Notes under the pieces: model-generated
Told to the model about the DNA's origin: nothing
Seen by the model: only the letters and a program-made list of their open reading frames with translations
Databases searched by the model: none
Assembly (NCBI GenBank): GCA_017453245.1
Contig: JAFTKM010000004.1
Span: 44,964-108,963, forward strand
DNA from: Clostridia bacterium
GTDB taxonomy: Bacteria > Bacillota > Clostridia > Oscillospirales > CAG-272
Length of the DNA: 64,000 nt
Reading direction: 5' to 3'
Position numbers and translations under genes: made by a program
Part shown: in pieces, positions 47,754 through 52,829 of the stretch
How positions within the stretch are numbered: position 1 is the first letter of the stretch
Layout: each line of letters starts with the position of its first letter

Positions 47754-47771
47754 TTGACATTTTAGTGTCAA
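47754..47771. promoter_or_regulatory. Palindrome TTGACA-N6-TGTCAA, copy 4
   Basis: Overlaps the stop of the 32-aa ORF, 8 nt upstream of GAGGT. Confidence 0.6.
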
Positions 47772-47866
47772 ATACCTATTTGTTTTGCCGTGAAAACAAA
47801 ATAGCCTAAAACGAGAAGAACAACAAGACCGAGCAGAACAAAGAGTATATTTCTTTTCTTGCTCAT
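47768..47866 (-). CDS. 32-aa single-TM protein (below the ORF-track cut-off)
   Basis: MSKKRNILFVLLGLVVLLVLGYFVFTAKQIGI. RBS GAGGTAACACA overlaps the upstream stop. Confidence 0.5.
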   Translation of the reverse strand: MSKKRNILFVLLGLVVLLVLGYFVFTAKQIGI

Positions 47867-47878
47867 TGTGTTACCTCG

Positions 47879-49315
47879 CTATTTACGGAATAATGAATTT
47901 AGGAGCTTAAAGGGGAGTGAGACTACCCATAAGACAACATCTATTGCGACTTTGAATATAACTGTAATTATGTTCATAAGCGGAGGTACGAAATTCGCAA
48001 GAACACATACGAGGACAACACCTAAAACAATAGCGATTATTTCCATAATCTCTTGCATTTTGTCCTCTAATTCAAGGAGTCCTGCACCAAAACCGTCAGC
48101 AATAGCATCGGCGGTTGTTTTGTCATTTACTACCGATAAATCATAGATTTTTTGGTCTATATTCAAAAACTTTATACGAAGTATTGTAGCATTGGCAATT
48201 TCAACTCCGTAATCGGTTGAATAAATTGTTACACCTTCTACTCGTGTACTTGATGAAGCAATCGTCTCCTTAAAAGCAAATACCCATTGTGAATTAGTCA
48301 AATGTGTTTTAGCTTCTTCCGAAAATTCCATTCCTTGATCTTCAAAGGTTGATATAAAGTCCTCGGCTTTCATTATACGCTTGTATGTATAACTCTCTTT
48401 CAAGAAAGGGATTTTGCGATTATCTTCTACACTCACACTATCTATGTCGGATAAATAGACAGTATCGGGGATAGGTTCTTCATCTAACCAAGTTCTTTCG
48501 GTAAAATTAGAATTCACATAATGGTCATTATACTGTTGCGAAGTGAAAGACAAATCTGCATTATAGATATGTTCTGCAATATAATCTTCCAAATTGAACG
48601 CTATAAACCACATATCCTTAAATCCGCCCGAAGTGCTATTATCGAATATATCTGTTGATATGCTTGAGTTCATACGAAGAAATCCGGTATAGGTTGTTGT
48701 AACCTCAAGAGTCTCAAAAGTGTTCATTTCGTAGTAAATTCTATCGTTCAGCCAATAGGCGTGCCACTGTTGACCAACCGAGTATGATTTTTCTGTGGTA
48801 GTTCCACCCGCAACATCGGTGTCTATAACCTCATTTACTCGTCTGTAAATAGAAGCGATATTGTAGTATCTGTGTTCATCACCCCTTACCTCAAAACCAT
48901 TTACGAGGTATTTATCGAAGCACCCCTCGGTTGATACAAGAGAAAGGGTGTAATTGGTAGGGGTAATTCCCGAGCCGTCGGGAGAAAAGCCGTAATAAAT
49001 ATTTATTGATGAAGCAAGCAAATCTATCGAATTGTGTGCAGGTTGGAAAGTATATACATACAATTCTCCCTTGTTGCTTTCGGCTACTTGGATAACTCGT
49101 ATTGAATAATCGGTAGCGTTTTCTTCATAATCTGCCGTGGAGAACATAGGATCTCTTGTTAAATCTGCCATAACTCCGTTAGCTTCATACTCACTTGCAT
49201 AACAAGTGATTGACGAACATAGGAGCAGAGAAATCGCAAGGAATACCGCAAAAATCTTTGTTACTTTAGTTCGCATTTTATTTGTTGTTTCAATTTTGAT
49301 TATTTTCTGTTCCAT
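47879..49315 (-). CDS. Secreted protein with signal peptide and C-terminal double-TM anchor (pIII-like topology)
   Basis: N-terminal IFAVFLAISLLLCSSITCYA signal. The C-terminal 60 aa are hydrophobic (IIAIVLGVVLVCVLANF...VVLWVVSLPF). Start moved to ATG 49315, behind GCGAGGAATT. Confidence 0.6.
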   Translation of the reverse strand: MEQKIIKIETTNKMRTKVTKIFAVFLAISLLLCSSITCYASEYEANGVMADLTRDPMFSTADYEENATDYSIRVIQVAESNKGELYVYTFQPAHNSIDLLASSINIYYGFSPDGSGITPTNYTLSLVSTEGCFDKYLVNGFEVRGDEHRYYNIASIYRRVNEVIDTDVAGGTTTEKSYSVGQQWHAYWLNDRIYYEMNTFETLEVTTTYTGFLRMNSSISTDIFDNSTSGGFKDMWFIAFNLEDYIAEHIYNADLSFTSQQYNDHYVNSNFTERTWLDEEPIPDTVYLSDIDSVSVEDNRKIPFLKESYTYKRIMKAEDFISTFEDQGMEFSEEAKTHLTNSQWVFAFKETIASSSTRVEGVTIYSTDYGVEIANATILRIKFLNIDQKIYDLSVVNDKTTADAIADGFGAGLLELEDKMQEIMEIIAIVLGVVLVCVLANFVPPLMNIITVIFKVAIDVVLWVVSLPFKLLNSLFRK

Positions 49316-49332
49316 AATTCCTCGCTTTCGTT

Positions 49333-49350
49333 TTGACATTGTGTTGTCAA
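49333..49350. promoter_or_regulatory. Palindrome TTGACA-N6-TGTCAA, copy 5
   Basis: Lies directly downstream (minus sense) of the terminator at 49354-49390. Confidence 0.6.
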
Positions 49351-51026: not shown

Positions 51027-51050
51027 TGTTTTTTCTCCTTTTGTTATGTT

Positions 51051-52547
51051 TTAATTTTCATAGGGGGTGTAATATTCATATCCCGAAAGGATATACTTTG
51101 CGAGATATTGAGCAATCTTTTCGTGACCGCTTGTGTTAGGGTGAAGTGTATCGTTCATATCATCGTCAGTAAGATTTGCCAAAGCGTTTACATCTGCATA
51201 CAGCAGACCGTTTCTTTTCGCACAAGTCATAATAACATTGGATATATCACGAAGTGAATATAAGTGACCGCCAGCCACTTCGCTATCAGTACCCTTTTGG
51301 TAAGGGGGAGTACAAATAATTATCCTTGTATTTGTGCCCTCAAAACGCTCTGCAAGTTGTCTGCACATCGTTTCAGTCGCACCCCAAACTGTTGTTGTGG
51401 TAGTGTCTCCGTCTGTACCAAGAGTATATTGTGAGCTATTGGCAAGGTTTTGGTCGTTTGTACCGAGCATTACGATAACGAGGTCGCTATCTGTGGGAAT
51501 ATTTGAAATGTTCTGTAATTGAGAGCTACGAACACCACCGGTACAAATAACCCAACCGCTATTACCCATATTGTTTTCTGTTGCTCCAAGCAAAGTTGAA
51601 AGAACAGTAGAATATCTCTCGGTTGCGGTATCAGTAGCACCCACGCCCGCAGTAATGCTATCTCCAAGGAAAGTAATAGTCTTTCCCGAATAGTAATCGC
51701 TTGCGAGTGCTACTCCGCTAAAAACCTGTTCTGTGTCCTTATCCCAACCAAACTCTACGAGCTTAATTGTTCCACCAGATCCCCAGAAAGAGAAGTAATA
51801 CTTATCGTTATATGCGTAAGTGAAATCAATAGTTGAAGTTGTTACAAGAACATCGTCAATGTAAAATTCAATTTCATCAGCAAGAACAATCTTTACTTTT
51901 ACTGTCTGTCCACGTAAATCCGTGGAGAAAGGTATAGAACAATCTTCCAAAGAGGGATTTGAAGTAGTTGTAATGTACTTCCAAGAGGATTGATCTGTAC
52001 CAAAATACATATTGTATTTAGGTGCAAACAATGTGGTAGCACTTGAAATCACCCACGAGTTATCTGTGGGATTTGCAATCTGCTCACTTGAAGCAAGACC
52101 AAAGTCAGAATTGCCACCGATAGTCCATTCTACTGTAACGGACATACCTTTTTCAAGGGGCATTTCAAGATAGTTAATATCCGTCCATTTGCTTCCGGTA
52201 AGGGTATGTGTGGAACTATCCCAAGTGGACGAGCCTTGTGCAATAACAAAGTCTATATCCTCGTAAACTGCGGTGAGTTCCATTTCCTCGGTGGCTCTGT
52301 AACGATATGTAGGTGATGTGCTAACTGTTTCACCCTCACTATCCACCCATTTTACAAACTTCTGCAAGTCCTTGTATTCCTCGGTGGTAGCGGTAAATGT
52401 TGTTTTTCCGTCTCCGCTTTCTTCTCCGCTAATACCGCCACTTGACTGTGGCTTTTCAAAAAATATGGAGAAAGAAGAAATAATCGCTACAATCGCAAGA
52501 ATGAGAGCGATATTTTGTGCGGAGAAAAATGATTTGTTTTTGTGCAT
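51051..52547 (-). CDS. Membrane-anchored protein with a C-terminal SGNH esterase domain
   Basis: N-terminal TM IALILAIVAIISSFSIFF. C-terminal FLGDSITAG, GNSGW, LGTNDQ and DTLHPN blocks. The start abuts the stop of the 46-aa ORF. Confidence 0.65.
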   Translation of the reverse strand: MHKNKSFFSAQNIALILAIVAIISSFSIFFEKPQSSGGISGEESGDGKTTFTATTEEYKDLQKFVKWVDSEGETVSTSPTYRYRATEEMELTAVYEDIDFVIAQGSSTWDSSTHTLTGSKWTDINYLEMPLEKGMSVTVEWTIGGNSDFGLASSEQIANPTDNSWVISSATTLFAPKYNMYFGTDQSSWKYITTTSNPSLEDCSIPFSTDLRGQTVKVKIVLADEIEFYIDDVLVTTSTIDFTYAYNDKYYFSFWGSGGTIKLVEFGWDKDTEQVFSGVALASDYYSGKTITFLGDSITAGVGATDTATERYSTVLSTLLGATENNMGNSGWVICTGGVRSSQLQNISNIPTDSDLVIVMLGTNDQNLANSSQYTLGTDGDTTTTTVWGATETMCRQLAERFEGTNTRIIICTPPYQKGTDSEVAGGHLYSLRDISNVIMTCAKRNGLLYADVNALANLTDDDMNDTLHPNTSGHEKIAQYLAKYILSGYEYYTPYEN

Positions 52548-52688
52548 TTACTTTCTCCTTTTGTTGTGATTTTTCTTTTGATTTTCTTTTGATAAAAAGG
52601 CTTTGAGGTATATAACGCTACATAACATAGCCCATACGCCTGTAATCATCATCACTATGTGATAAAGTTCGCCAATAGTTAATTGCAT
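52548..52688 (-). CDS. 46-aa single-TM protein with a basic C-terminus (candidate major coat protein; below the ORF-track cut-off)
   Basis: MQLTIGELYHIVMMITGVWAMLCSVIYLKAFLSKENQKKNHNKRRK. Strong RBS AAGGAG 8 nt upstream. The stop TAA abuts the ATG of the next gene. Confidence 0.55.
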   Translation of the reverse strand: MQLTIGELYHIVMMITGVWAMLCSVIYLKAFLSKENQKKNHNKRRK

Positions 52689-52700
52689 ATTAAATCTCCT

Positions 52701-52829
52701 TTACAATCCAAAGAAATCTAATAGGGCAGATGTAAATGAGCTTTCGTGTTCATTTGGAAAGTCTGACATCATTGTATCTTTGTACCGATTTTCAGCCGTT
52801 TTCCTCATTTCGTATTCATAAAAACTCAT
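52701..52829 (-). CDS. Possible 42-aa acidic protein (below the ORF-track cut-off)
   Basis: MSFYEYEMRKTAENRYKDTMMSDFPNEHESSFTSALLDFFGL. The RBS is weak. Confidence 0.3.
   Translation of the reverse strand: MSFYEYEMRKTAENRYKDTMMSDFPNEHESSFTSALLDFFGL

Follow-up and report, generated by a model that had tools for sequence, protein, structure and literature searches.

Three small genes, encoding proteins of 46, 32 and 42 amino acids (p46, p32 and p42), were analyzed in a 64,000-nt stretch of a Clostridia bacterium metagenome-assembled genome (MAG) (GenBank GCA_017453245.1, contig JAFTKM010000004.1, positions 44,964–108,963; this whole stretch is hereafter the window). Judging from their conservation in related loci, all three are real protein-coding genes. 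They are carried by an integrated rolling-circle element, presumably of single-stranded DNA (ssDNA) type, that measures ~13.96 kb and spans about 39.8–53.8 kb of the window. Sequence searches place the element in a very large family from gut Firmicutes that has not been characterised before, defined by a membrane ATPase and a coupled protein of ~30 amino acids, here p32; its >1,000 clusters (50% identity) come from hundreds of Firmicutes and Mollicutes-like species of the gut. We lean towards the interpretation that the three micro-genes form part of a particle-assembly or DNA-export module with an inovirus-like layout and a non-Zot ATPase, in which p32 would be a core component. Sequence and structure-model comparisons detected no likeness to pI/Zot in the hallmark ATPase, and the evidence does not identify the element as an inovirus.

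Conservation of the three micro-genes

All three micro-genes are on the minus strand, at 52548–52688 (p46), 47768–47866 (p32), and 52701–52829 (p42), with the coordinates and translations that had been assigned to them in an earlier, sequence-only reading of the window. The minus-strand gene order is p128, p79, p42, p46, p498, p271, p242, p486, p32, the 735-aa ATPase, p80, and the replication protein (Rep). The GenBank MAG record appears, from locus-tag arithmetic, to annotate none of the three; two of the micro-proteins are predicted only in ENA or Logan, and one is predicted nowhere. None of the three has a Pfam or PHROG match below E ~0.02 or similarity to a known coat family. Because 159 open reading frames (ORFs) of ≥25 aa overlap the 14-kb stretch, the presence of an ORF is not in itself above chance, and conservation decides. 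That the micro-ORFs are chance open frames without a product might be suggested by the abundance of short ORFs in this AT-rich stretch (all three lie within a 38% GC island, in a host of ~51% GC), as well as by the lack of a ribosome-binding site (RBS) match ahead of p42. Against this stand their conservation, the frames kept intact in diverged copies, synonymous-biased substitution, and a codon-position pattern; on these sequence comparisons chance frames are effectively refuted for all three, and we assign them a negligible probability. The conservation check proposed in the sequence-only reading came out as anticipated for p46 and p42, which are intact in relatives, with most pairwise ratios of nonsynonymous to synonymous substitution (dN/dS) at ~0.06–0.3. 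The transmembrane (TM) prediction that it also proposed, carried out here as a hydropathy scan, gave one segment each in p46 and p32 but none in p42.

p32 is the family's universal small protein. It is basic at its N-terminus, has a single membrane-spanning segment (residues 7–25) and a GYFVFT motif, and its gene carries the GAGGT RBS noted earlier, 6 nt before the ATG. An iterated hidden Markov model (HMM) search over all ORFs recovered a p32 homolog in 78 of 85 related loci, and several of the loci without one end within the 5′ end of the ATPase gene. The homologs are always directly 5′ of the ATPase gene, with a 4-nt overlap between p32 stop and ATPase start in 44 of 79 cases. The family consensus is MKTFKRILxVLLGIVIxxVIGYFIYTGxxV; across 73 unique sequences the G of the motif is kept in 71, the Y in all 73, and the T in 62. 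Ahead of the helix there are on average ~2.9 basic and zero acidic residues, and the length of the tail is fixed in 50 of 79. Entropy by codon position (1.23, 0.65, and 1.67 bits) has a coding pattern. The proposed substitution check was thus answered for p32 by conservation and codon-position pattern, but not by pairwise dN/dS, which is uninformative because synonymous differences (pS) are saturated and hydrophobic residues are freely exchanged.

When all ORFs of M13, B5, MV-L1, HRPV-1, and L2 were searched with hmmsearch and phmmer, nothing significant was found for the element proteins. Among the 363 ORFs of these five reference viruses, the best match to the p32 profile was L2 ORF12 (E 3e-3), which has a strong composition bias and probably matches by chance. 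L2 ORF12 (plasmavirus L2, L105, 8657–9130) has several TM segments and is encoded immediately before the gene for the envelope protein; its N-terminal sequence, SKKGKNLIYVLLGLV, is similar to p32 of the window, SKKRNILFVLLGLV. A resemblance between the GYFVFT motif and GITYFT of M13 pIX was checked with the p32 profile and was not supported.

p46 is a clade-specific membrane protein with a predicted N-out/C-in topology. The features given in the sequence-only reading were recovered: an AAGGAG RBS 7 nt before the ATG, a TAA that abuts the ATG of the 498-aa gene, and one TM segment (residues 8–26) followed by a basic tail, with charges of -1 for the N-tail and +7 for the C-tail. Loci carrying p46 and p42 were obtained via homologs of p46, p128, and p79, and are inserted at several different chromosomal sites. 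p46 is intact in 15 of these (seven DNA variants); the L094/L095 lineage has it as a 50-aa form. dN/dS is 0.08–0.26 in the N-terminus and TM part, and the tail varies in sequence while always being polybasic (net charge +7 to +10 in the clade). The last codons of p46, AAA AGG AGA AAG (KRRK; 52548–52565), also form the AAGGAG RBS of the next gene, so that part of the basic tail is under a second constraint.

Sequence searches with p46 retrieved only close relatives, and only two database matches. A survey of 61 loci with ≥3 kb upstream of the ATPase, which filtered ORFs simply by hydropathy and RBS, found small TM ORFs with a basic C-terminal tail only in the window's clade; p32 was the sole small TM ORF in 46 of the 61. 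In the minimal relatives L004 and L010, no p46-like ORF is present, even in the gaps between genes, and p32 is the only small TM ORF. A major capsid protein is expected in relatives that share the ATPase, p486, and p271, and only p32 qualifies; p46 is thus unlikely as a family-wide coat. The proposal of the sequence-only reading that the 46-aa protein is the best major-coat candidate is therefore not supported: p46 is confined to one subclade and lacks a counterpart in the other relatives examined, whereas p32 is universal. The features of p46 are nevertheless of Pf3 type, namely no signal peptide, an acidic N-tail, one TM segment, and a basic C-tail.

p42 is an acidic, soluble, clade-specific accessory protein, with six intact variants in 14 loci. 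It was correctly described as acidic (net charge ~ -4), but the weak RBS attributed to it was not recovered, there being no Shine–Dalgarno match at all. dN/dS is 0.06–0.19 against the window copy (the L002–L087 pair is uninformative), and the non-coding DNA upstream of p42 has diverged between copies. The gene is limited to one subclade and is absent from the L094/L095 lineage; this absence, together with a soluble, acidic sequence that has no TM segment, speaks against the suggestion that p42 is an inovirus coat-type protein. By gene order p42 occupies the pVII/pIX slot, but it is hydrophilic and acidic.

The ATPase, the neighbouring genes and the element boundaries

The ATPase gene (45553–47760, minus strand) encodes a membrane P-loop protein, listed as 735 aa and probably of ~720 aa (likely start 47739), with a polytopic N-terminal domain and the Walker A motif GTMGSKKT. 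At 90% clustering it has 2448 homologs, all of which lack Pfam domains and informative names, and a profile search yielded 1160 clusters at 50% identity. When the profile was searched against 1.84 billion representatives, the top 150 matches were all family members, and thus gave no bridge to known families. The 418 matches among species-representative genomes are mostly in MAGs of gut Clostridia, Christensenellaceae, Anaeroplasmataceae, and Coproplasma; one carrier in culture is Pumilibacter intestinalis CLA-AA-M10 (L066). In viral collections there is one match in IMG/VR and one in the INPHARED phage GenBank collection (an unverified, unannotated record). Literature searches found no published description of the ATPase/p32 family.

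Known inoviruses of gut Firmicutes carry a recognisable Zot domain (PMC8530359). Neither the window ATPase nor 20 family members gave a Pfam Zot hit at E up to 5, and hhalign of the ATPase against M13 pI and B5 Orf8 aligned only 12–15 residues around Walker A, with a probability of 0.2–2%. Foldseek with the AlphaFold2 (AF2) model of the ATPase, which has a predicted local distance difference test (pLDDT) score of 72, returned nothing at E < 1e-3 in PDB or BFVD; a very remote relationship could have escaped these comparisons.

One relative, L038, is a contig of 13154 nt that is inferred to be circular from a 141-nt terminal overlap. Some members, including L038 and L007 (4632–6098), pair the p32–ATPase module with another type of Rep (...KKWAYILHD..., ~360–390 aa), and it appears that replication modules and morphogenesis modules can be exchanged. 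Proteins of L008 (5882–6181) and L007 (5028–6098) end in ...DDDSGIPF or ...DDSLPF, like the C-terminal tip of bacterial single-stranded DNA-binding protein (SSB). The close relative L096 encodes the anti-restriction protein ArdA (10577–11068) in an accessory module whose cargo is variable, at a place taken by other small genes in the window.

Several genes upstream of the ATPase, all on the minus strand, encode anchored or exported proteins. p486 (47879–49339), directly upstream of p32 and with homologs in 37 loci, has a pIII-like architecture, with a signal peptide, two C-terminal TM segments, and a basic tail (TM segments at 21–39, 426–444, and 449–467). p242 (49395–50123) is an SGNH/GDSL esterase with an N-terminal signal and possibly a lipobox (Pfam Lipase_GDSL_2, 1.4e-24), and matches the PHROG tail-fibre family phrog_5240 (4.6e-31). 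p271 (50211–51026; TM 14–32; homologs in 28 loci) is N-terminally anchored and matches phrog_19519, ‘neck protein’ (8e-9). p498 (51051–52547) is an SGNH esterase (Lipase_GDSL_2, 1e-21, residues 293–476) anchored by a single N-terminal TM segment; it is variable cargo, absent from the closest relatives L002, L003, and L087. The large anchored protein in the position of pIII, directly downstream of p46 in the sequence-only reading, is p498: it is indeed anchored and adjoins p46, but it is an esterase that close relatives lack, and the pIII-like architecture is that of p486.

At the upstream end of the operon, p128 (53285–53671, minus strand) is a beta-rich protein with an acidic tail and a possible ssDNA-binding function; its AF2 model (pLDDT 88.8) has weak Foldseek matches only, several of which are SSB/OB-fold chains (E 0.03–0.5). 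A terminator-like hairpin lies 3′ of p128 (53201–53225, minus strand). p79 (52867–53106, minus strand) is very basic and soluble, with homologs in 17 loci and no Pfam or PHROG match; elsewhere among the relatives, different proteins of high basicity take its place. In every relative with an inspected gene map, one or more genes encode small soluble proteins of extremely basic composition (for example, 52867–53106 in the window, 7089–7418 in L004, 2850–3104 in L095, and 5936–6286 in L009); these proteins belong to several unrelated sequence families, lie at differing positions, and have no match in Pfam or PHROGs. For p80, between the ATPase and Rep, no match was found. Across all operon proteins and the basic proteins of relatives, Pfam and PHROG scans identified only SGNH, Rep, rve, and SprT.

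The palindrome TTGACA-N6-TGTCAA occurs at six sites (42770–42790, 45274–45294, 45544–45564, 47752–47772, 49331–49351, and ~53183–53205), five of which are intergenic, just upstream of the starts of p79, p486, the ATPase, p80, and Rep. Three copies precede the same ribosome-binding stretch, CGAGGTATAA, and the stems of the copy upstream of p79 are kept in three lineages, with a variable loop. It might serve as an operator, form a hairpin in RNA, or act as a signal in ssDNA.

The Rep (44234–45259, minus strand) matches Pfam PF23343 (REP_ORF2-G2P; E 1.2e-9, 38.7 bits vs. a cut-off of 27.8), and a DDE (rve) transposase-type integrase (39928–40890, minus strand; Pfam rve, 3.6e-16) is encoded at the far end of the element, in the same position as in L002 and L004. 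The element is flanked by direct repeats of 33 nt (39805–39837, family D7, and 53769–53801; 94% identical, spacing 13,964 nt). These are specific to the insertion site in the window and are absent from relatives inserted elsewhere, and thus look like a duplicated target or att site; 33 nt is long for such a duplication by a DDE transposase. Between 40900 and 41930, ~1 kb without a convincing ORF contains several long imperfect inverted repeats (for example, 41485–41546 with 41767–41833, and 40909–40932 with 40969–40992), and may be the element origin or a structured RNA.

A strong promoter-like site (TTGACA-17-TAGAAT with TG) follows closely after the insertion point, in the region 53804–54125. 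The adjoining valyl-tRNA synthetase-like gene (54126–56786) has a terminator-like hairpin in its leader (54041–54069); a T-box leader would be expected there, and Rfam gave no match at the gathering threshold. Just outside the other end, in DNA that is still low-GC, a 695-aa protein (37590–39677) combines a D-Ala-D-Ala carboxypeptidase domain with Cys-rich repeats, which derive in part from a 130-nt tandem-like direct repeat (37839–37968 and 38067–38196).

Possible roles and alternative interpretations

In the interpretation that we favour, p32 would act as a membrane partner or structural subunit of an ATPase-driven assembly or export machine. This protein of ~30 aa is predicted to have its N-terminus, with about three basic residues, on the inside and the near-invariant G-Y where the helix reaches the outer face, and it would be translated together with the ATPase. 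The p32 gene lies between those of the pIII-like p486 and the ATPase, which corresponds to the gVI slot of Ff. No other protein is a candidate, across the whole family, for a small ‘coat-like’ component of a particle; were that particle a filament, the candidate major coat would be p32, not p46. p46 would then be a clade-specific accessory whose polybasic cytoplasmic tail plausibly contacts DNA, and p42 a clade-specific soluble accessory. We count the domains that the anchored proteins have in common with phage families (tail fibre and neck) in favour of particle-type proteins.

Assignment to the inoviruses, as in the sequence-only reading, is supported in part. The Rep is of the gII/ORF2 type used as an inovirus criterion (PF23343), although some relatives have other Rep types; the element is small; and its gene order runs roughly parallel to that of Ff (V, VII, IX, VIII, III, VI, I) and B5, but it has additional genes in between, and Rep comes after the ATPase. 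Read this way, p486 matches III, p32 VI, and the ATPase I, and p128, p42, and p46 take the places of V, VII/IX, and VIII. p46 and p32 are both small proteins of 30–90 aa with 1–2 TM segments, as described for major coats (Roux et al., 2019; PMC6813254), a criterion that is permissive and silent on function. The assignment is not supported by the ATPase, which lacks Zot/pI similarity, or by any coat-family match. The size and hydrophobicity of p32 fit the pVII/pIX type, but its slot is that of gVI.

Several observations weigh against a central role for p32 in a particle. Pairwise dN/dS for pairs with unsaturated pS is 0.75, which is not low and weakens the argument from selection; it is compatible with free exchange among hydrophobic residues. 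p32 has no sequence or experimental link to any known coat or assembly protein. To our knowledge, the basic residues of known inovirus coats all lie at the C-terminal end, and those of p46 do too, whereas in p32 they are N-terminal. The filter used to survey p46-like ORFs may have missed atypical genes, and the very basic soluble protein present in all relatives examined could package the DNA instead.

An alternative that retains the inovirus assignment is that p46 is a major coat of the Pf3 type and p32 a minor cap protein like pVII, pIX, or pVI. The strong RBS of p46, its short acidic N-tail, single TM segment, and basic C-tail are all in keeping with this, as are its location after an SSB-like gene, as gVIII follows gV, and the presence of p32 in the gVI slot beside the ATPase. 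Major coat families, moreover, differ between inovirus groups (Roux et al., 2019; PMC6813254). We nevertheless regard this alternative as unlikely, given that p46 has no counterpart in sequence or position outside one subclade despite the shared homologs of the ATPase, p486, and p271, that the ATPase is not Zot-like, and that no coat family is matched. The tails of known coats have 2–4 basic residues, vs. a net charge of +7 to +10 in p46. A different possibility is an enveloped, pleomorphic particle released by budding, of the pleolipovirus, plasmavirus, or L172 kind, in which p79 and its analogues would condense the ssDNA, p32 and p46 would reside in the envelope, and the anchored proteins would be spikes. 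All candidate structural proteins are membrane-anchored, a very basic soluble protein is encoded in the relatives with examined gene maps, and the minimal gene set (small membrane protein, anchored spike, NTPase, and rolling-circle replication (RCR) Rep) parallels that of HRPV-1; the hosts include Anaeroplasmataceae and Coproplasma, and a precedent exists in Acholeplasma virus L172, described in PMC13375369 as enveloped and unsequenced, with a 14-kb ssDNA genome. Similarity to HRPV-1 proteins (VP3, VP4, VP8) or to L2 proteins is lacking, the sole match being the weak, composition-biased one to L2 ORF12; most host MAGs are Clostridia or Christensenellaceae, which we expect to be walled and in which budding would be harder; and the gene order matches that of Ff equally well. 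We consider budding particles quite improbable.

It is very unlikely, in our view, that the element is a non-viral integrative mobilisable or conjugative element, with the ATPase as a new DNA translocase, p32 as a translocon subunit, p46 and p42 as accessories, and anchored esterases and adhesins that remodel the cell surface. The ATPase does generally resemble coupling proteins in its layout of membrane domain and P-loop, the SSB-like gene, the SprT-like gene, and ArdA (in L096) are typical of the leading regions of transfer elements, and the family is nearly absent from viral collections. Yet no relaxase, VirB4, type IV coupling protein (T4CP), or FtsK domain was detected by Pfam in the window proteins or the ATPase family members, the Rep belongs to a phage type (ORF2/G2P), tail-fibre and neck families of phages are matched by the anchored proteins, and the genomes are small (10–14 kb) with an Ff-like order. 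More speculatively, and we think this quite doubtful, the family might consist of ssDNA viruses of a lineage not recognised so far, released chronically in particles built from membrane, and might supply the sequences that correspond to L172; p32 would then be the principal membrane protein of the particle and the soluble basic protein would package the DNA.

The micro-proteins are missed by standard annotation, and the pair of p32 and ATPase is a marker for a mobile-element family that occurs in hundreds of gut species and is near-absent from viral databases. If the elements make particles, a whole group would be missing from gut virome surveys, and a universal structural or assembly protein of 30 aa would, if confirmed, be among the smallest known. 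Coat candidates in such elements are better chosen by conservation across relatives than by resemblance to Ff or Pf3.

Comparison with known systems

The element shares with the inoviruses of Gram-positive hosts (Propionibacterium phage B5, Paulinoviridae) and with M13 an RCR Rep of the ORF2/G2P family, a small genome with one-directional operons, and a roughly parallel gene order, from an SSB-like gene through tiny genes, a large anchored protein, and a small hydrophobic gene to a membrane ATPase; B5 also has tiny single-TM proteins (27–57 aa). Unlike in these phages, the ATPase is twice as long and has its membrane domain at the N-terminus (the reverse of the order in pI), with similarity to Zot limited to the P-loop; the universal small protein p32 carries its basic residues N-terminally; and there are extra genes for N-anchored esterases and adhesin-like proteins as well as for a very basic soluble protein. 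Compared with the major coat of Pf3 (44 aa, signal-less), p46 is similar in its length of 46 aa, the lack of a signal peptide, an acidic residue in the short N-tail, one TM segment, and a basic C-tail; it differs in having a far more basic tail, an N-tail of only seven residues, and no sequence similarity, and it is restricted to a single subclade of these elements.

With the pleolipovirus HRPV-1 the element has in common an RCR Rep, a small membrane protein, a spike with a signal peptide and a C-terminal anchor, and a putative NTPase, although sequence similarity is not detectable, the known hosts of pleolipoviruses are haloarchaea, and the analysis yielded no sign of an envelope. The likeness to Acholeplasma virus L172 lies in the size of ~14 kb and in hosts, some of which are related to Acholeplasmatales.

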